This document shows, one piece after another, positions 44,417 to 52,968 of a stretch of 64,000 bases of DNA. Under the pieces are notes generated by a model that had not been told where the DNA came from, searched no databases, and saw only the letters and a program-made list of their open reading frames with translations. Every line of letters starts with the position of its first letter. Position 1 is the first letter of the stretch. The translations under genes and the position numbers were made by a program. Source of the stretch: an uncultured Gammaproteobacteria bacterium (GTDB taxonomy: Bacteria > Pseudomonadota > Gammaproteobacteria > Pseudomonadales > JAHEGP01). The stretch lies in assembly GCA_963808975.1 (NCBI GenBank), contig CAWEHR010000012.1, positions 23,139-87,138 on the forward strand, written 5' to 3'.

Positions 44417-47017
44417 ATGAAAAGTGCCGAATTACGCGAAGCATTCCTGAAGTATTTTGAGCAGCAGGGGCATCAACGGGTGGCCAGCAGTTCGCTGATT
44501 CCCGGCAACGACCCGACCCTGCTGTTTACCAATGCCGGGATGGTTCAGTTCAAGGATGTATTCCTGGGTGACGACAAGCGCCCCTACACCCGGGCTGTCA
44601 GCTCCCAGCGCTGTGTCCGTGCTGGCGGCAAGCACAACGATCTCGAGAACGTTGGTTACACCGCCCGCCATCACACTTTTTTTGAGATGCTGGGCAATTT
44701 CAGCTTTGGCGATTACTTCAAACATGACGCCATTCGTTACGCTTGGGAGTTCCTCACCGAGGTCCTCGGCCTGCCCGAAGAAAAACTCTGGGTGACCGTG
44801 CATGTGTCGGACGACGAGGCGGCTGACATCTGGCTCAAGGAGGTCGGGGTCAGCGCCGAGCGCTTCTCGCGCCTCGACGAGGACAACTTCTGGCAGATGG
44901 GCGACACCGGCCCCTGTGGACCCAGTTCGGAGATATTCTACGATCATGGCGAGTCGGTATTCGGCGGTCCCCCCGGTAGCGAAAACGACGATGGCGACCG
45001 CTACATCGAAATCTGGAACCTGGTATTCATGCAGTACCAGCGCGGGGCCGATGGCACCCTGAGGCCGCTGCCAAACCCGTCGATAGACACGGGTATGGGT
45101 CTCGAACGTATCGCCGCGGTGATGCAGGGCGTGCACAGCAACTACCAGATCGACCTGTTCCAGAAACTGCTCGCAGCGGTGATCGATGTGACCGGCGCCA
45201 CCGATACCCACAGCCAGTCGTTGCGGGTGATAGCTGACCATATCCGCTCCTGCGCTTTCCTGATTGTCGACGGCGTGATACCCGGCAACGAGGGTCGCGA
45301 CTACGTGTTGCGGCGCATCCTGCGGCGGGCCATTCGCCACGGCCATCGCCTGGGGGTCGACCAGCCATTCTTTTACCGCCTGGTGGCTCCGCTGGTGGCT
45401 GAAATGGGCGCTGCCTATCCTGAACTTCGCGAGCAGCAGCAGAGGGTAGAGCGGGTGATATTGGGCGAAGAACAGCAATTTGCCGCCACCCTGGAGCACG
45501 GTATGGCGATCCTGAACGAGGCCATCGCCGGCCTCAAGGGGCAGCAAATACCGGGTGACATTGTGTTCAAGCTGTATGACACCTACGGCTTCCCGGTCGA
45601 CCTGACCAACGACATCGCGCGGGAACACCACCTCAGCCTGGACCTGGCCGGTTACGAAGCAGCCATGGCGGCCCAGCGCGAGCGCTCCAGGGAGAGGGGG
45701 CAGTTCCGGGTTGATTACAGTCACAAGCTCAAGCTCGACACCCGGACCACATTTACCGGCTATCGCGAGCGGGCAGGCGAGGCGACGGTTGTCGCGCTGC
45801 TGCGGGGCGACCAGAGTGCTGATTCCCTGGCCGAAGGCGAGGAGGGCGCGGTGGTGCTGAACTGCACGCCCTTTTATGCCGAGTCGGGTGGCCAGGCCGG
45901 CGACAGCGGCTATCTCGAGGGCGACGCAGTGCGGTTTGAGGTTGTGGACACCACCAAGGCGGGGAATGCCCATGTCCACCATGGCAAGCTGCTGAGCGGC
46001 GCGCTCACGGTGGGGGACACGGTCACCGCCAGCATCGATGGCAATGTGCGTAACGCTACGGCACTCAATCACTCCGCCACCCATTTACTGCATGCGGCCC
46101 TGCGCCAGGTGCTGGGCACCCATGTGAGCCAGAAGGGCTCGCTGGTCGACAGCCAGCGCCTGCGCTTCGATTTCTCCCACAATGAGGCCCTGACGGCGCA
46201 GGAGCTGCGCCAAATCGAGAGCCTGGTCAACCAGCAGATTCGCGACAATACACCGGTACAGGTGGAAATCACCGATATGGAGACGGCGAAGAAAAACGGC
46301 GCCATGGCGCTGTTTGGCGAAAAGTATGGCGACGAGGTGCGCGTGCTGACCATGGGCAATGGCTTTTCGGTCGAGCTCTGCGGTGGCACCCACGTCGAGC
46401 GAAGCGGTGACATCGGCCTCATGCGAATTGTCTCGGAGACCGGTATTTCATCGGGTGTACGGCGCATCGAAGCGGTGACCGGTGCCGCGGCGCTGGCGCG
46501 CTTCGATGACCTGGAGCGAGAGTTGACGAGCCTTGGCGCCCTGCTCAAGACCGGCCGCGACAGCATAACAGCGAAGGTAGAGCAACTGCTGGCGAACCAG
46601 CGCAAGCAGGAAAAAGAGCTGCAAAAGCTGCAGGCCCGGCTGGCCGGCAGCACCGGCTCCGATCTGGCGGCTTCGGCCGAGGATATCGGTGGCGTCAAGG
46701 TGCTGGCGGCGCGGCTGGACACTGCTGACGGCAAAACCCTGCGCACCACCATGGATCAACTCAAGAACAAGCTGGGGGCTGCCGCCATCGTGCTGGCCGG
46801 TGTCGACGGCGACAAGGTGGCCCTGGTTGCAGGCGTGACCAAGGCAGAATCGCAGCGGGTGAAAGCCGGCGACATGCTGTCGATGGTTGCGGGTCAAATC
46901 GGTGGCAAGGGTGGAGGTCGAGCCGACATGGCGCAGGGCGGCGGTGGTGACCCTGCCGGTGTCCCAGCAGCATTGCAATCCGTTAGCGCCTGGGTGGCCC
47001 GGCAGTTGGAAGCCTGA
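44417..47017 (+). CDS. alaS: Alanine-tRNA ligase
   Basis: [42 protein letters not shown]. Confidence 0.99.
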
Positions 47018-47164
47018 ACGTAAAGCGCAGATTCATAATTCCTTGCCCGCAGTAGTTCAATTGCATTGCAATTGGTGGTAAAGTGCCGCGCCTTCGGGCA
47101 GGCATATCTATTACCACACGTATCATGCGTTGGTTTAAGCCTCTACTCTGAACAGTAATTCGGC

Positions 47165-48394
47165 ATGGCATTGATCGTCCAAAAATTCGGTGGCACCTCG
47201 GTGGCGAACGTCGAGCGCATTGAAGCGGTCGCGGAACGCGTACTCGCCTGTCGGGAGCGGGGTGAGCAACTGGTGGTGGTGGTGTCGGCGATGAGCGGCG
47301 AAACCAACCGCCTGATTGAGCTGGCCCATAGTATCCAGCCCGCGCCGGACCCCCGGGAATTCGATGTGCTGGTTTCTACCGGCGAGCAGGTCACTATCGC
47401 GCTGTTGTGCATGGCCCTGATCAAACGCGGTTGCCCCGCGCGCTCCTATACCGGGGCGCAGGTTAGGATATTGACCGACAACGCTTACAACAAGGCTCGC
47501 ATCAAGGAAATCGACGGTGGCGCCCTGCGCAGCGACCTCGACGCGGGCCACGTTGTGGTGGTGGCCGGTTTCCAGGGGATGGACGCCAAAGGCAATATCA
47601 CCACCCTGGGGCGGGGGGGCTCCGACACCACCGCCGTGGCGCTGGCGGCGGCGCTGGAGGCCGATGAATGCCAGATCTTTACTGACGTCGATGGCGTTTA
47701 CACCACCGACCCGCGGGTAGTGAATGGCGCCAGGCGTCTGGACCGCATTACCTTCGAAGAAATGCTGGAGATGGCGAGCCTGGGCTCCAAGGTATTGCAA
47801 ATCCGGGCCGTGGAGTTTGCCGGCAAGTACAATGTGCCGCTGCGGGTGTTGTCCAGCTTCGAGGACGGCCCCGGCACCCTGATAACCCGGGAGGAACCGG
47901 ACCAGATGGAAGCACCCACTATTGCGGGCATCGCTTTTAATCGTGATGAAGCCAAACTCACCGTTGTCGGTGTGCCCGATACCCCCGGCGTGGCCTATAA
48001 AATCCTCGGACCTATTGGGGAGGCCAATGTCGAAGTCGACGTCATCGTACAAAACGTTGGTGCCGACGGCACTACCGACTTCACTTTCACCGTGCACCGT
48101 AACGAAATGGCCAAGGCCGAGGCAATTCTGAATCGTACCGCCGTTGAACTCGGCGCCAGGCAGGTGATCAGCGACGACAAGATATGCAAGGTATCGTTGG
48201 TGGGGGTCGGCATGCGGTCCCATGCGGGTGTCGCCGCCAAAATGTTCAAGGCGCTGGCCGAGAGCAACATCAATATCCAAATGATCACCACCTCCGAAAT
48301 CAAGATTTCAGTGGTGATTGCCGAGAAATTCATCGAACTCGCGGTGCGTACGCTGCATTCTGCTTTTGATCTCGAGGAGCCGGCAGCAAAATAG
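47165..48394 (+). CDS. lysC: Aspartate kinase
   Basis: QKFGGTSV, LGRGGSD, two ACT domains. Confidence 0.96.
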   Translation: MALIVQKFGGTSVANVERIEAVAERVLACRERGEQLVVVVSAMSGETNRLIELAHSIQPAPDPREFDVLVSTGEQVTIALLCMALIKRGCPARSYTGAQVRILTDNAYNKARIKEIDGGALRSDLDAGHVVVVAGFQGMDAKGNITTLGRGGSDTTAVALAAALEADECQIFTDVDGVYTTDPRVVNGARRLDRITFEEMLEMASLGSKVLQIRAVEFAGKYNVPLRVLSSFEDGPGTLITREEPDQMEAPTIAGIAFNRDEAKLTVVGVPDTPGVAYKILGPIGEANVEVDVIVQNVGADGTTDFTFTVHRNEMAKAEAILNRTAVELGARQVISDDKICKVSLVGVGMRSHAGVAAKMFKALAESNINIQMITTSEIKISVVIAEKFIELAVRTLHSAFDLEEPAAK

Positions 48395-48593
48395 ACGGCA
48401 ATAGATGATTCAGATTCACCTATAATTGCCGCTTTGCTTTTTCGAGGAGAGCCTGGATGTCCCTCGAATCATATCGGCCCGCAGGAGCGGCCGGTTAAAA
48501 CAGAACTTCCACAGCAGATGGAAGTCATCATGATAAGTTCTTCCCCTGAGGAACAGTGGGGCAGGAGGGATAGCCAGTAACAGGAGAATTTGG

Positions 48594-48785
48594 ATGCTAA
48601 TTCTGACGCGTCGCATTGGTGAGACGTTGATGGTGGGTGATGATGTGTCGATCACCGTTTTGGGGGTCAAGGGCAACCAGGTGCGCCTGGGGGTTAACGC
48701 ACCCCGCGATGTCGCGGTTCATCGGGAGGAGATTTACCAGCGCATACAGGACGAAAAGACCGTTGGTCCGGATGAAGAAAGTTAG
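48594..48785 (+). CDS. csrA: Carbon storage regulator CsrA
   Basis: [12 protein letters not shown]...[10 protein letters not shown]; canonical alaS-lysC-csrA-tRNA-Ser context. Confidence 0.98.
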
Positions 48786-48828
48786 CCAGTTCAAAATTGG
48801 CAACTGCGCTTCAGTTAGCGTCCTGTTG

Positions 48829-48846
48829 TGGTATCATCTCGCCCGC
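48829..48846 (+). promoter_or_regulatory. Putative stable-RNA promoter (extended -10 plus GC-rich discriminator)
   Basis: TGgTATCAT followed by CTCGCCCGC just upstream of the array; -35 is weak. Confidence 0.55.
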
Positions 48847-48853
48847 TAAAAAC

Positions 48854-49679
48854 GGCGGCCCCGAAGGGGTGAGGAGCGTGCGACGAATCAGGCGCTCCCC
48901 GGTTGATCAGGAAGGCTCGATGCCTGAGTGATCAACGAACGATGAATACAAAGTAAAGTTGTAAAGAGTTTGGTGAGGTGGCCGAGTGGCTGAGCCGGAG
49001 CTTGCGCAGCAAGCGTAGACAACGCCCGCAGGGCGGCCCCGAAGGGGTGAGGAGCGTGCGACGAATCAGGCGCTCCCCGGTTGATCAGGAAGGCTGGATG
49101 CCTGAGTGATCAACGAGCAGTAAGACAAAGTAAAGTTGTAAAGAGTTTGGTGAGGTGGCCGAGTGGCTGAGCCGGAGCTTGCGCAGCAAGCGTAGACAAC
49201 GCCCGCAGGGCGGCCCCGAAGGGGTGAGGAGCGTGCGACGAATCAGGCGCTCCCCGGTTGATCAGGAAGGCTGGATGCCTGAGTGATCAACGAGCAGTAA
49301 GACAAAGTAAAGTTGTAAAGAGTTTGGTGAGGTGGCCGAGTGGCTGAGCCGGAGCTTGCGCAGCAAGCGTAGACAACGCCCGTAGGGCGGCCCCGAAGGG
49401 GTGAGGAGCGTGCGACGAATCAGGCGCTCCCCGGTTGATCAGGAAGGCTGGATGCCTGAGTGATCAACGAGCAGTAAGACAAAGTAAAGTTGTAAAGAGT
49501 TTGGTGAGGTGGCCGAGTGGCTGAGCCGGAGCTTGCGCAGCAAGCGTAGACAACGCCCGTAGGGCGGCCCCGAAGGGGTGAGGAGCGTGCGACGAATCAG
49601 GCGCTCCCCGGTTGATCAGGAAGGCTGGATGCCTGAGTGATCAACGAGCAGTAAGACAAAGTAAAGTTGTAAAGAGTTT
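48854..49679 (+). repeat. 177-bp tandem array of interrupted tRNA-Ser 5' fragments (partial unit plus 4 full units)
   Basis: GGTGAGGTGGCCGAGTGGCTGA recurs at 48972, 49149, 49326, 49503 and 49680 (the true tRNA), period exactly 177. Confidence 0.97.
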
Positions 49680-49770
49680 GGTGAGGTGGCCGAGTGGCTG
49701 AAGGCGCTCCCCTGCTAAGGGAGTATAGGCTAATCCCCTATCGAGGGTTCGAATCCCTCCCTCACCGCCA
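49680..49770 (+). tRNA. tRNA-Ser (anticodon GCT)
   Basis: Acceptor GGTGAGG/CCTCACC plus GCCA; anticodon arm CTCCC-CTGCTAA-GGGAG; long variable arm; GGTTCGAATCC. Confidence 0.98.
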
Positions 49771-49810
49771 TCATCAAAAAGCCCGGCCCTGTGTCGGGTT
49801 TTTTGATGAT
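49770..49810. terminator. Bidirectional intrinsic terminator after tRNA-Ser
   Basis: ATCATCAAAAAGCCCGGC...GTCGGGTTTTTTGATGAT. Confidence 0.85.
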
Positions 49811-50011
49811 CGGTTACGGGATAGGGTGAGAAGCCTCGCGGTTCGACAAAATGCGGGAGCATTTTGCAACGGGCCCGCAGCGCTTCCCGGCCCTGCTCAC
49901 CCAGGACGGACCGGTCGATTGAGATGTCCGAGCGACAAGGCGATCGGTACGCGGCTATGAGCAGCCTTCCGTTGTATACTCTCATTGCTATTTAACAATA
50001 AGGGGGTCGTT

Positions 50012-50260
50012 ATGGATTTTTTCATCGGTCAAATATGCACGTTCCCATGGAGCTGGGCTCCAAGGGGTTGGGCGAAGTGTGACGGACAGCTGCTGCAAAT
50101 CGCCGAGAACCAAGCACTATTCGCGCTCATCGGAATCGAATTCGGAGGCGACGGCCGCACGACCTTCGCCCTTCCCAAGATGCCACCTGTGAAGACGGAT
50201 AATGGCGGCGATCTGGACTACTTCGTCAACCTAGAAGGTATTTTTCCCTCGCGCTCCTGA
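50012..50260 (+). CDS. Stand-alone phage tail collar domain protein
   Basis: FIGQI..F...APRGWAKCDGQLL.I..NQALFALIG..FGGDGRTTFALP...GIFPSR. Confidence 0.88.
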   Translation: MDFFIGQICTFPWSWAPRGWAKCDGQLLQIAENQALFALIGIEFGGDGRTTFALPKMPPVKTDNGGDLDYFVNLEGIFPSRS

Positions 50261-50761
50261 TGGGCCTGGCCGGAGCGAACCTCCGGCGTTGCTTCGTTCC
50301 CGGCGGAGCCTTCCCACAGCCGGCCAGTAACCATCGAAGGCATGGCTGATGGTCGGCACCATCGAACCACCCAGCAAAACCTCCATACCACGAAAGTTTA
50401 CTTCGGTGTGTAAACCGAAATATTCATCCGCCAAGTTTCTTCCACCCACGATAGCAACACGGTTGTCGATCACCAGTGATCCAACCGTGTCCATTCCCCA
50501 GAGGAATGTCTGGATTTCGATGCTCTGGGTAGCGCTATCAATGGTCTTCAAGCGCCAGTCCAAGGCATTGGTACCGCGATTTAGCAGCACAAACCAGTCC
50601 TCATCCAGCTCGGGTTCCAACGACTGCCAGAAGGTATCATCGAATGCCGCGGGCGTATTTTCATCGGGCAGTAGCACAGGTTCGAGAGCCGTGCAGCCTG
50701 ATATGAGTAAAGCCAGAATGAGCGTCGGTGTCGACTTGGCAAAAGGTCTAATGGTTAGCAT
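50231..50761 (-). pseudogene. Phospholipase D (ClsC/YmdC-like) lipoprotein remnant with internal deletion
   Basis: Lipobox ISGC; SIEIQTFLW..D..G joined directly to IDNRVAIVGGRNLADEYFG, so the HxK of the first HKD motif is missing; truncated. Confidence 0.75.
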
Positions 50762-50814
50762 CAAATGGCTACCTGCGATGGTCATCATGAAATGTTGTGG
50801 TCGGGTGATTCTAG

Positions 50815-50974
50815 GAGCCTGTCGGGCTTAGGATTATTCTACTGCGCCGATGGGATGGCGGTCCAAATGTCCGCGATATTTCGTTGCTTAGCCCCACTAT
50901 GCGCCTCAATCTCGCAAAAATTTGACATCGCCCTCCCACTCGGCTCGCTACCAACACCTAAGTCCGACAGGCTC
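50815..50974. mobile_element. 160-bp MITE with 18-bp terminal inverted repeats, flanked by CTAG
   Basis: GAGCCTGTCGGGCTTAGG ... CCTAAGTCCGACAGGCTC (17/18); CTAG at 50811-50814 and 50975-50978. Confidence 0.85.
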
Positions 50975-51146
50975 CTAGCAAAGAGTATGATGAACTAGCC
51001 GTCCTCCATAGCGAACGAACGCTTTGGAGAATTGCCGGCATAAAAAAGCCCGGCGCGTTGCCCAGGCTCCTATTTCGGCTTGGCGCCAGTTGCAGCTCCT
51101 GGATATTCTTGGGTCCTGCATCAAGCTGTCAACTTCATTCTCCCGA

Positions 51147-51840
51147 TCAGGGGCGCGGATGCTCAGAGAAAAACCTCCAGATTTCGGCCGAGCCGTCGAT
51201 ATCCTGGGTGGTTTTCCCCGCCCAGAAATATTGCACCGGGTCCAATTCAAACAAGTCAATTGCCCCCGGCCAGCTGTGCCCGCCACCATCCACAGTACAG
51301 AACTCCGTGGTGGCTCCCTGCGCACACTCGTTGTAGGAGACACAGGTTACATCGCCCTGCAGGTAAACGACCGTGGACTCGGGGGAGCACTGGTTAGCGG
51401 CAGCCCAGGCCCTTGCATCCGAAGCGGCCAGCGAGTACTCAACGACTATATCCAATGTGCCATTCATTGCGAGCATCGGGACGGGGCGGGATGGAGTGCA
51501 AGAGATTGTCCTGTCTCTGGCCGCCACCGGCCCGATCGCGGCGAAGCGATCAGCCATTTCGCAGGCAAGCCGATAGCTCATATAGCCGCCGTTTGACATT
51601 CCCGTGGCGTAGATTCGATCAGGATCGACACAATACTCACTACTTACTTGCTCAATTAAGTCGGCAGTGAAACCTACGTCGTCGACTGCGGCCTCTAGCG
51701 CGACATCGCAGCACTCCCCTGCATTCCAGCTGTTGCCTATACCTTGGGGAGAGATAATAATGAACTTGTTTATATCGGCCAGTGCGGCGAACTCGGAATA
51801 CGCAAACTGGCCTTCGCTGGTGGAACCACGACCATGGAAC
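51147..51840 (-). pseudogene. 5'-truncated PHB depolymerase/LpqC-family esterase
   Basis: FHG...WNAGECC...DDVGF...RIYATGMSNGG...GGGHSWPG in one frame; N-terminus absent. Confidence 0.8.
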
Positions 51841-52087
51841 TGAGAGGTTGAAGCCCAGCCGCCTCGAATGACCGTTGACGAGGTGGCGCAGCCAGTGAGA
51901 TCAGCTCGGAAATCGCAGCGGCTAATTGGGGCGATGTGTCACAGCGGACGTGAGATAATGAGGACCGCGCGCCACCGTAGGCACGCCTCTTGGATTGACT
52001 TCATGGAACACCGATCATCTGCTTTGTTGCGCCCTTTGAGGAGGCGGCAGGCTGACGATCGGCCAGCAGGCAGGAAATGGTCTGAAA

Positions 52088-52375
52088 TCAAGGAAAAGCT
52101 GGGTTTCGGGGAGTGTAGTGGGGGCGAAATGGGCTGGAATCGGTGGGGGTAGGTAGCCAGTGACAGCGGTTTAGTAGATCTCGACTTCGGGCGTGATGTG
52201 CTTTATGGATCTTGTCTTTTTTCCTGGAACCAAATTGACTGCTGGCTTCGGAGAAATAGATGTAACCGCTGTCGGTTGGCGCCTGCCAGGCAACCGGATC
52301 GATCGCCACCGGCCAGAGCAGGAAGTAGGCAAGCACCGCCAGCAGAACCACCATTACACTACGCATCGATACCAT
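52088..52375 (-). pseudogene. Strictosidine synthase/SMP-30-like remnant
   Basis: YFLLWPVAIDPVAWQAP fused directly to GYIYFSEASSQFG, then degenerates. Confidence 0.55.
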
Positions 52376-52395
52376 CCGGGTTGCAGTATGGGCGA

Positions 52396-52875
52396 CTAGC
52401 CGGCAAAGCGGGCACAGGTGTGCTGGTCAGCCCCCGGGCCCGCCTTCATTCTCAGGTCGTTCGGGTCCACCGTTGTTCCCTGGGTGTCCTGTAACTTCAG
52501 CTTTGCGAGCGCCGCGCCGTTTTTTGCATTGTACAAAACCACGGGCGCACCGGTCGCAGCATTCATCCAATCGTCCCCCCATTGCATCAGCGCGATCAAT
52601 ACCGTGTGCAGGGCACTGCCCTTGGGCGTCAGCCGATACTCGACCCGGCGAACCTTTTTCTCCGATTCAACCCTGAGCAACACACCGTGCTCCTGCAGCG
52701 ACTTCAAGCGCTTGGAAAGAATGCCCTTGGAGATATCAAGATTGGTCTGGAACTGATCGAAATGACAGGAGCCCCGCATCGCCTCCAGCACGATCAGAAT
52801 GCTCCACCAATCGCCGATCACATCCATCGCCCGGGCAACCGAGCAATTCTTCGACTCGAAACACACTCGCTCCAT
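52396..52875 (-). CDS. HxlR-family winged-helix regulator
   Basis: CSVARAMDVIGDWWS, LSKRLK, EYRLTPKG, LMQWG. Confidence 0.92.
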   Translation of the reverse strand: MERVCFESKNCSVARAMDVIGDWWSILIVLEAMRGSCHFDQFQTNLDISKGILSKRLKSLQEHGVLLRVESEKKVRRVEYRLTPKGSALHTVLIALMQWGDDWMNAATGAPVVLYNAKNGAALAKLKLQDTQGTTVDPNDLRMKAGPGADQHTCARFAG

Positions 52876-52912
52876 TTTTTTCCTCCCTCCTGTGACTTTT
52901 TTCAAAAAAGGC

Positions 52913-52968
52913 TTGACAGGTACTATAATCGAACCTTAGTATCAACGCAACGGTTCTAATATAGAACC
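52913..52968. promoter_or_regulatory. Sigma70-like promoter with two 17-bp palindromic operators
   Basis: TTGACA(52913)-18-TAGTAT; GGTACTATAATCGAACC (52919) and perfect GGTTCTA-ATA-TAGAACC (52952). Confidence 0.7.

Follow-up and report, generated by a model that had tools for sequence, protein, structure and literature searches.

The tRNA-linked repeats (TLRs), to which the RtT RNA of E. coli belongs, have been on record since 1978 and have, by the account in the accessible part of PMC8144298, no known function and no accepted origin. According to the same part of that paper and the available text of PMC3318445, the TLR RNAs of E. coli are transcribed and processed. The locus compared here with this family is a 177-nt tandem array in the window, a 64,000-nt stretch of DNA from an uncultured gammaproteobacterium (genome G000). 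The array (48854-49701; TRF) holds 4.8 copies, a copy number that is that of this assembly, with 98% matches; it lies between csrA and tRNA-Ser(GCT), on the same strand as the tRNA gene and abutting it. A first-pass annotation of this DNA had described a 74-nt insert in the D loop of a tRNA; that the insert is part of a tandem repeat was absent from it, as was a fifth, partial unit that starts inside the insert. The features of the locus are as follows.

48594-48785, plus strand: csrA, immediately 5' of the array (Pfam CsrA, PF02599, E 5e-26).
48829-48837, plus strand: candidate extended -10 element, TGnTATCAT, read by eye, for a putative transcript of leader and tRNA-Ser.
48854-48971, plus strand: partial first unit (last 36 nt of the insert, copy of tRNA nt 23-33, spacer); start of the TRF array.
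48972-49148, plus strand: full unit 1, in the order 5' tRNA piece, core, tRNA piece, spacer hairpin, AU-rich spacer (copy of tRNA nt 1-22 at 48972-48993, core at 48994-49067, copy of tRNA nt 23-33 at 49068-49078).
48994-49067, plus strand: 74-nt insert, probable TLR/RtT-type core, with three C-GNA-G hairpins and a fourth stem predicted to pair with the tRNA-derived flank.
49149-49325, plus strand: full unit 2, core at 49171-49244.
49326-49502, plus strand: full unit 3, core at 49348-49421, loop variant GTA.
49503-49679, plus strand: full unit 4, core at 49525-49598, loop variant GTA.
49680-49770, plus strand: intact tRNA-Ser(GCT) (ARAGORN; Rfam tRNA, 60.9 bits).
49785-49810, plus strand: intrinsic terminator of the tRNA gene (terminator scan; inverted repeat I1).
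49824-49893, plus strand: truncated 3'-type TLR remnant, 3' of the tRNA gene (regex match C12:72963, window position 49825).

In all four full units, unit nt 1-22 are those of tRNA-Ser(GCT), the sole tRNA that ARAGORN found in the window, and the 11 nt 3' of the insert equal tRNA nt 23-33. Excision of the insert in silico leaves exact tRNA nt 1-33 in each of the four; the junction is unambiguous and carries no target duplication. The D-loop position was borne out, the core lying between tRNA nt 22 and 23 (TGA^A, with the junction at the caret). Units are 99-100% identical, and the variation among full units is, as had been claimed, confined to one of 177 positions, the middle base of one loop: C, C, T and T at 49029, 49206, 49383 and 49560, in the hairpin GCCC-G(C/T)A-GGGC. 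When aligned with a full unit, the partial first unit shows five differences, in the spacer. The unit sequence departs from the tRNA after nt 33, so each copy is a truncated tRNA fragment and not an interrupted whole gene. Genome-wide, the 22-mer of tRNA nt 1-22 occurs five times, in the four units and in the gene, and all six matches of a unit BLAST search against its own genome fell within this single array, with no dispersed copies.

We consider it probable that the insert represents a conserved TLR core of four hairpins, that its unit was amplified in tandem and that the array is transcribed as a tRNA leader, this judgement applying to the three parts jointly. Identity, architecture, homology and conservation pattern were observed directly. 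In local alignment with the RtT copy of the tyrT-tyrV interval in E. coli K-12, the insert scored 47 (z 11.2; none of 1000 shuffles scored equally); with the other three E. coli RtT copies, z was 2.0-2.2. A BLAST search with the insert reached genome G266 at E 4e-8 (query nt 1-74) and G010 at E 1.7e-7, and the elements so linked score 57.1 bits and 49.4-52.1 bits, respectively, with Rfam model RF00391, above its threshold of 45 bits; BLAST matches L042 and L045 pass this threshold. The four RtT copies of E. coli around tyrT-tyrV, run as a control, scored 133-138 bits. Searched directly with RF00391 at E up to 10, neither positions 47500-50500 nor a single unit gave a match. The best Rfam match of the window unit was RF02902, a core-only model, in the right register and weak (16.2 bits, E 0.54); apart from this and tRNA, Rfam matched nothing in the window, and no ribozyme or intron family. 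The insert is not a new element: it is probably the core of the known TLR/RtT family.

The core family was found in 30 of the 157 genera in a sample of one order; it also appears in named records of further gammaproteobacterial groups and of a few other phyla. The copy of the tRNA 3' end (18-19 bp) that defines TLRs is absent from the window units; such a copy of 18-19 nt accompanies relatives of the core elsewhere, among them L072, L075, L078, L081, L097, L122 and L124. A 3'-type element is also present at this locus, as the remnant at 49824-49893, which retains the motif GGGTGAGAAGCC..GGTTCGA and the first hairpin and then decays; its sequence recurs in genome G006, in a 173-nt array of 2.4 copies behind tRNA-Ser(GGA). 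Tandem arrays stand beside 8 of the 38 tRNA genes of G000, at six loci, and by motif scans TLR-related modules occur at only three tRNA loci of this genome. Six other G000 loci (five arrays beside tRNA genes and a tRNA-3'-like array at C4:7739) had no RtT match in Rfam searches at E up to 1, nor did two further tRNA-Ser loci of G000 or three 5' arrays of relatives (L028, L033 and L030). These other arrays may belong to the TLR family, judged by motif resemblance only.

The window array represents a variant of the known TLR family, here called the 5' form, in which a truncated copy of tRNA-Ser precedes the gene and holds the core in its D loop. It recurs in at least seven genomes, in one of which, from another family (G030), the whole unit is homologous, with csrA followed by tRNA nt 1-22, the core, a 13-nt tRNA piece, the spacer hairpin and tRNA-Ser(GCT). 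Genome G215 likewise has the 5' form between csrA and tRNA-Ser(GCT), and at L099 it precedes tRNA-Ser(GCT), with csrA outside the view. A 5' unit common to another family is therefore old and not the product of a recent hop. The core is 96% identical (354/370) between G000 and its sister species G003, and the copy of tRNA nt 23-33 is 98% identical (54/55), compared with 74% for the spacer hairpin and 51% for the AU-rich spacer; in two of the five G003 units, 8 nt have been lost from the 5' tRNA piece. By this comparison, selection appears to keep the core together with its flanking pairing partner, and not the spacer or the 5' tRNA piece.

The pairing partner belongs to a fourth hairpin, predicted in both DNA and RNA folds, in which GGAGCG of the insert pairs with CGCTCC of the tRNA-derived flank. 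Hairpins named in the first-pass annotation were likewise predicted with both parameter sets, but the small CGT-GCG-ACG hairpin was replaced in the folds. The fold energy of this single sequence is unexceptional (z -1.4 as DNA, -1.0 as RNA and -1.7 for the opposite strand as RNA). Support for more than a chance pattern comes instead from the repeated 22-mer and from the same architecture in other genera with different stems. Of 66 distinct homologs, retrieved with a pattern that left the central loop free, 60 carry a GNA loop on the central hairpin, in line with the loop constraint that had been proposed. Triloops 5' of the central hairpin are GNA in 26 of 43 cases, 25 of these 26 being closed by C-G. 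At least four nested pairs of the fourth hairpin can form in 67 of 86 distinct homologs versus 5.6% of shuffles, and each of its stem positions shows all four Watson-Crick pair types. Minimum free energy folds of 40 cores from other genera contained the central hairpin in 36 and the last hairpin in 34. In MAFFT alignments (A1 and A2) the variable stems fell out of register, and stem pairs were therefore counted by script from fixed anchors. In the fourth hairpin, G-T wobbles occupy 7 of 340 paired cells, and A-C mismatches number 12 at the same five stem positions. RNA under selection usually has an excess of G-U pairs on its own strand; the minimum free energy folds contain 42 on the tRNA strand versus 53 on the opposite strand. 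The scarcity of wobbles and the lack of a G-U excess on the tRNA strand count against the core acting as RNA. By fold energy, in contrast, the tRNA strand has a slight advantage in 29 of 41 cores (Wilcoxon p 0.003), so that the comparison of strands is ambiguous overall.

The composite unit, from its 5' tRNA piece to its AU-rich spacer, is old, and here it has been amplified to 4.8 head-to-tail copies, presumably by unequal homologous recombination or slippage between repeats. Gene conversion, as part of the same process, would keep the copies and the tRNA-derived flanks identical to the neighbouring gene. We infer the amplification mechanism, and likewise transcription and processing: the array may be transcribed as a long tRNA-Ser leader from a promoter just 3' of csrA, and the leader would then be cut into hairpin-rich RNAs of ~177 nt, like RtT RNA from the E. 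coli tyrT transcript. G003 and G001 have a similar extended -10 element in the corresponding position 3' of csrA, and a consensus promoter scan of 48500-50100, which requires a -35 element, returned 0 sites. Public RNA contigs (runs X15 and X19) over 49503-49900 cover only the tRNA; the last unit is present in DNA contigs of X1 and X2. One low-support joint from 49583 to 49678 (one contig, side 21) was disregarded.

Amplification leaves the placement of the core at an exact YGA^A in three tRNA loops unexplained. An association of homologs with tRNA sequence had been anticipated, and a tRNA gene lies within 1.5 kb at 17 of the 27 loci found by BLAST; tRNAs within 260 nt of a core are co-oriented with it at 12 of 12 loci. 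Tabulation of the flanks placed the core between the two halves of a tRNA loop, split at YGA^A: T-loop junctions read TTCGA^A in tRNAs for Ser, Arg and Glu (17 rows, 14 loci), D-loop junctions of tRNA-Ser read CTGA^A or TTGA^A (seven genomes), anticodon-loop junctions of tRNA-Ser(CGA) read TCGA^A (two loci), and one species has a D-arm junction, CCGA^G. The core accompanies tRNAs of many identities. Only two YGAA sites exist in the tRNA-Ser(GCT) of the window, both of which host TLR junctions in this clade, and in G006 a core of 92% identity occupies the same D-loop position of isoacceptor GGA, with flanks from that gene.

It is possible, if doubtful, that the core is a present or former non-autonomous mobile element, site-specific at YGA^A in exposed tRNA loops. 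Such an element may be handled as folded ssDNA by an HUH/Y1 enzyme or moved by a loop-directed site-specific recombinase, and the truncated tRNA copies would be wrecked duplicates that tolerated its insertion. This explanation concerns the origin of the placement and is therefore compatible with later tandem amplification. It would accommodate a single site motif shared by different loops and tRNAs with both flanks matching the neighbouring tRNA, movement within the genus to isoacceptor GGA in G006, the lack of target duplication with fixed orientation (12/12 loci), and the prevalence of C-GNA-G triloops on almost purely Watson-Crick stems. In the accessible part of bioRxiv 10.1101/2024.07.17.603846, the tyrT/rttR region of E. 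coli is over-represented in exonuclease-resistant DNA, the 'mobilome' fraction left by exonuclease treatment, under stress. Y1 transposase genes are commoner in genomes with the insert (43/50) than in others (200/351; odds ratio 4.6, p 4.5e-5, a statistic that ignores relatedness), but G006 and G010 carry clear copies and have no Y1 match, and in family f11 the insert is present in two of four genomes and Y1 in none of the four.

Other observations also weigh against mobility. This genome has the core at one locus only, with related modules only beside tRNA genes, and the copies arose by tandem amplification. Cores are confined to partial tRNA copies with the intact gene alongside, a pattern that would require a prior duplication each time, and a 5' unit common to separate families speaks against recent movement. 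None of the five places in G000 with a Y1 domain (PF01797) has a core-like hairpin nearby. Stand-alone cores are mostly also preceded by '..GA'; YGA may thus be the terminus of the element itself, and the pattern of junctions may stem from microhomology and not from targeting. The earlier proposal of an ssDNA or cDNA element moved in trans to tRNA loops is supported in part, in its link to the loops and in the GNA constraint.

A broader version, which we regard as unlikely, would make TLRs as a whole the footprint of an undescribed mobile hairpin cassette that enters tRNA-gene loops at YGA^A as folded ssDNA and is moved in trans, possibly by a Y1/HUH enzyme. Action as folded ssDNA would account for the C-GNA-G triloops, for stems that are purely Watson-Crick and for the fixed strand. 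Its by-products would be the tandem arrays next to tRNA genes and the partial copies of tRNAs. If so, the 5' D-loop array described here would be one of the clearest cases.

The position of the array directly 3' of csrA, seen also in G030 and G215, raises the question of a CsrA/Hfq-binding sRNA sponge like CsrB/RsmZ or RrA, RrB and RrF. The latter three are TLRs that, as reported in the accessible part of PMC8144298, bind Hfq and CsrA in vitro through GGA loops. Each window unit contains four GGA, of which one lies in the spacer hairpin, in its 5-nt loop, and in homologs from other genera GGA occupies 12 of 72 loops 5' of the central hairpin and 5 of 34 loops 3' of it. By our own arithmetic, however, base composition predicts about three GGA in 177 nt, so four are no enrichment; in the spacer hairpin, the GGA loop is lost in G003 and mutated in the first unit of the window, and the core loops here are GCA, GCA/GTA and GAA, none of them GGA. 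For the 19 tRNA-operon TLRs of E. coli, the same accessible text gives values below 0.01 in a predictor of CsrA binding. Adjacency of csrA and tRNA-Ser is, moreover, general synteny, present in E. coli without the element. We hold a sponge at this locus to be highly improbable and reject it, GGA being near chance and the loop GGA absent in G003.

Tyrosine integrases cross over in tRNA loops flanked by stem inverted repeats. On one reading, the units would be attachment-site leftovers of integrase-driven elements that repeatedly integrated into and were excised from tRNA-Ser, an idea suggested by junctions in just such loops and by partial tRNA copies, which are typical of att sites. It is scarcely credible here: the units are 177 nt long and 99-100% identical, no integrase domain was detected in the 11 ORFs scanned beside the locus (44417-52956), the same core occurs with tRNAs of many identities, and integrative elements duplicate the 3' part of a tRNA and not nt 1-33. 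An intron or intervening sequence removed from tRNA-gene RNA, suggested by the exact restoration of nt 1-33, can be dismissed, since every interrupted copy ends at nt 33 and lacks nt 34-91, so no tRNA could result, the intact gene lies 3' of the array and no ribozyme or intron family matched.

Our search of the literature, which did not extend to Egan and Landy 1978, Rudd 1999 or Bosl and Kersten 1991, did not find three points in print; earlier priority is possible for each. One is the range of the TLR family far beyond enterobacteria; another is the 5' form; the third is the placement at YGA^A in loops together with C-GNA-G hairpins with hardly any wobbles. Together these additions yield testable alternatives for TLRs: a processed RNA, a hairpin cassette acting at the DNA level, or a mobile element.

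Among known systems, REP/RAYT elements and the palindromic miniature elements derived from IS200/IS605 are short and hairpin-rich, insert without target duplication and have an orientation fixed by a short flanking motif. The window core resembles such miniature elements in its YGA left flank, its lack of duplication and the greater frequency, uncorrected for relatedness, of Y1 genes in the genomes that hold it; it differs in having no dispersed copies, in occurring only beside tRNA genes and in the absence of core-like flanks around Y1 genes. C-GNA-G mini-hairpins are exceptionally stable in DNA, and the same loop and closing pair are the rule across homologs of the core, but GNA triloops are known in RNAs also, and members of the TLR family exist as RNA in E. 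coli. The model of AaHKsRNA22 (RF02902, Aggregatibacter sRNA 22) spans the same four-hairpin core and passes its threshold of 39.8 bits on an enterobacterial homolog (L090, 43.6 bits), whereas the window reaches only 16.2 bits. RrA, RrB and RrF, behind 5S rRNA in E. coli, belong by the authors' account to this same repeat family and are processed from a stable-RNA operon transcript; they have GGA loops, unlike the window core, and the GGA loop in the window spacer is not conserved.

The closest relatives remain the TLR/RtT elements of E. coli. With them the window array shares a homologous core, a tRNA-operon setting, co-orientation with the tRNA, and head-to-tail units of ~170-180 nt with partial copies of the neighbouring tRNA; the classic tyrT case of Egan and Landy in 1978 reportedly has a 178-bp unit. 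TLR loci hold one to five head-to-tail copies, compared with 4.8 in the window and 5.6 in G003. The csrA-serV interval of E. coli K-12 contains no core, and only 3'-type TLRs occur there, after argV and argZ. The E. coli units stand 3' of the gene and carry the last 18-19 nt of the tRNA, whereas those of the window stand 5' of the tRNA, enclose the core between tRNA nt 1-22 and 23-33, and are without the 5' module (G-ATGAGAACC..GGTTCGA).

A tandem repeat occupies the interval between csrA and the only tRNA gene of the window:

44417-47017, alaS
47165-48394, aspartate kinase gene
48594-48785, csrA
48854-49701, tandem repeat of a 177-nt unit between csrA and tRNA-Ser(GCT), 4.8 copies, 98% matches
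48854-48971, fifth unit of the repeat, partial, starting within the insert
49680-49770, tRNA-Ser(GCT)

Each of the four full units consists, in order, of tRNA nt 1-22, the 74-nt insert or core (e.g. 48994-49067), 11 nt equal to tRNA nt 23-33, a 36-nt hairpin, and an AU-rich spacer that stops where the following tRNA-like start begins. Removal of the insert restored tRNA nt 1-33 in all four. Beyond nt 33 the unit sequence departs from the tRNA, and each copy is therefore a truncated tRNA fragment. One position, in a single loop, varies among the full units (GCA versus GTA). The first-pass annotation had described a 74-nt insert in a tRNA D loop; the sequence observation was correct, but the object is one period of a tandem array. 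A 207-nt metagenome contig (public sequencing run X1) spanning one unit carries C at 49560, where unit 4 has T, which is the GCA variant of units 1-2; since contigs collapse repeats, it demonstrates only that the sample contains both loop variants. Directly behind the tRNA locus is a 91-aa ORF (49985-50257) with a phage tail collar domain (PF07484, E 6e-24).

The insert is identified, with good support for both identity and architecture, as a tRNA-linked repeat core that lies in a 5' D-loop arrangement and has been amplified in tandem within the tRNA-Ser(GCT) leader; transcription, processing and function of the array are presumptive. When 401 genomes of the order were searched by BLAST with the insert and its flank, 50 of them, spread over 30 of 157 genera, gave matches. 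A tRNA gene lay within 1.5 kb at 17 of the 27 matched loci, and wherever it was no more than 260 nt away it was co-oriented with the match (12/12 loci). Scanning the species collection for the pattern yielded at least 122 stretches; among the matches listed, most were from Gammaproteobacteria, including enterobacteria, some came from Desulfovibrionaceae or Verrucomicrobiota, and a few fell in coding DNA by chance. RF00391 (RtT RNA, the Rfam model of the E. coli family) matched several homologous loci over its full length, exceeding its 45-bit threshold at L054 (59.6 bits), L042 (57.1 bits) and three units of L045 (49.4-52.1 bits); four E. coli tyrT-tyrV copies, used as a control, scored 133-138 bits. 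Both L042 and L045 are direct BLAST matches of the window's insert. The window's array itself did not reach RF00391, and its best Rfam core match was a weak one to the core-only model RF02902 (16.2 bits, E 0.54). Alignment of the insert with the RtT copy located in the tyrT-tyrV interval of E. coli gave a z of 11.2, equalled by none of 1000 shuffles; the three remaining E. coli RtT copies gave only 2.0-2.2. The enterobacterial records L090, L101 and L107 (Intestinirhabdus and a Klebsiella MAG) have cores that lack tRNA flanks and stand between longer terminal inverted repeats, an arrangement that may be akin to ERIC/IRU elements.

A left flank ending at tRNA-Ser nt 22, with a right flank from nt 23-25, recurs in at least seven genomes (G000, the window's own; G003, G006, G215, G030, L099 and L119), and one further species has a variant junction after nt 14. 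In G006, of the window's genus, a 92% identical core occupies the same position in a tRNA-Ser(GGA) copy that continues to about nt 50, GGA anticodon included; G001, also of this genus, lacks the 5' unit. In G030, which belongs to another family, homology extends over the entire unit that separates csrA from tRNA-Ser(GCT), its spacer hairpin as well, and the composite is therefore older than the split of these families. A recent event at the window's locus is thus disfavoured.

The orthologous array of G003 (182-nt unit, 5.6 copies) matches that of G000 closely in the core (96% identity) and in the core's pairing partner, the 11-nt tRNA piece (98%), and less so in the spacer hairpin (74%) and the AU spacer (51%); two of the five G003 units have an 8-nt deletion in the 5' tRNA piece. 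Units are 98-100% alike inside one genome while arrays are 83% alike between genomes, and this combination is the pattern of concerted evolution through unequal exchange.

The unit was found at a single locus in G000. Of its 38 tRNA genes, 8, at six loci, adjoin tandem arrays whose periods range from 99 to 177 nt, and a seventh array has a tRNA 3' end where no gene was called. The six arrays outside the window (contigs C4:359793-360458, C11:176333-176903, C5:86399-86765, C8:105033-105451, C9:415694-416198 and C4:7739-8082; units of 99-174 nt, 2.1-5.1 copies) begin in or just past tRNA genes (Arg-tct, Arg-ccg, Ile, Ala-ggc, Gly-gcc) or bear the uncalled 3' end. Both tRNA-Arg arrays share a 174-nt unit, and none of these other arrays had an Rfam RtT match at E up to 1. 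Among related genomes, arrays stand before tRNA-Ser in G034 and G008, and behind it in G003, G006, G010 and G030. A truncated 3'-type repeat, GGGTGAGAAGCC..GGTTCGA plus the first hairpin, lies behind the tRNA gene at 49824-49893, and its sequence is that of a 173-nt, 2.4-copy array behind tRNA-Ser(GGA) in G006. tRNA-Ser(GCT) is therefore bracketed by both repeat forms.

Cores of other genera fold into a matching series of hairpins whose stems are unrelated. With pairs counted from fixed anchors, 67 of 86 distinct homologs had four or more nested pairs in the last hairpin, compared with 5.6% of shuffles, and G-C, C-G, A-T and T-A all occur at each position of this hairpin. The loop constraint proposed in the first-pass annotation proved real: with the loop left unconstrained in the search, the central hairpin had GNA in 60 of 66 homologs, and upstream of it 26 of 43 triloops were GNA (8% expected from composition), 25 of these 26 closed by C-G. 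On the tRNA-sense strand of the compared cores there were four GNRA and no UNCG tetraloops. Over all of them, this strand is purine-rich and very low in T (G 37%, A 23%, C 29%, T 12%). Wobble pairs are nearly absent and there is no strand bias: the last hairpin had 7 G-T and 12 A-C beside 340 paired cells, and minimum free energy folds of the two strands had 42 versus 53 G-U pairs. Such a scarcity without strand bias is unusual for a selected RNA and allows a reading at the DNA level. The fold energy of the window's sequence was not exceptional in a single-sequence test. In the cores of L073, L075, L078, L130, L137, L141 and the Desulfovibrionaceae loci L076-L080, a subgroup, the first and last hairpin loops are A/C-N-GGA or AUGGAU. 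These loops look like CsrA binding sites, in keeping with the binding of CsrA that is reported for E. coli RrB; they are absent from the window's core.

The junction survey comprised 58 rows, some places being fetched twice and many rows matched on the right flank only or on neither; the following rule covers only rows with both flanks matched to the neighbouring tRNA. T-loop junctions are TTCGA^A (17 rows, 14 loci), D-loop junctions of tRNA-Ser are CTGA^A or TTGA^A, and the anticodon-loop junction of tRNA-Ser(CGA) is TCGA^A (L069, L124). At the last two loci (L069:300-480, L124:60-200) a truncated tRNA-Ser(CGA) copy has the core right behind the anticodon, with the intact gene downstream. Upstream copies at L134 (reverse strand, 284-480), L063 and L123 are near full length, missing no more than the last acceptor strand, and have the core within the T loop; these are intermediate forms between the whole gene and the short canonical repeat. 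YGAA occurs only twice in the window's tRNA, once in the D loop and once in the T loop, and each site hosts repeat junctions in the clade. The pattern is non-random and fits site-specific insertion; recombination via the short T-loop-like ends of the core fits it equally well. Among the matches listed, cores standing alone are also mostly preceded by ..GA and end in CGAAT, so the YGA motif may be part of the element itself. The first suggestion, an ssDNA element mobilised in trans into tRNA loops, finds support in the pattern (loops, YGA^A, GNA) but none for its mechanism.

The Y1 transposase family (HUH type, PF01797) is present in 243 of the 401 genomes, and is commoner in genomes with the insert (43/50 versus 200/351; odds ratio 4.6, p 4.5e-5, in a count that ignores relatedness and genome size), but it is absent from G006, G010 and all four genomes of one family (f11). 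G000 has five Y1 places, none with core-like hairpins nearby. One lies just past the window (C12:89839-92066, ~2.7-4.9 kb past its end) and is apparently split, profile positions 1-55 and 55-120 being ~1.9 kb apart. Among the 11 ORFs near the locus that were scanned, none showed an integrase domain.

Repeats of this sort are described in PMC8144298 as 'tRNA-linked repeats', first reported in 1978 and of no known function. That account gives 22 for E. coli K-12, at ten loci with one to five each; members of the E. coli family occur as processed RNAs, which speaks for an RNA reading, and three of them, located behind 5S rRNA, bind CsrA and Hfq in vitro (PMC8144298). The csrA-serV interval of E. 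coli K-12 contains no core, and this region has only 3'-type repeats, after argV and argZ. Unlike the E. coli repeats, the window's units lack the defining 3' identity with the tRNA, and their core instead stands between the two halves of a D loop that matches the downstream tRNA.
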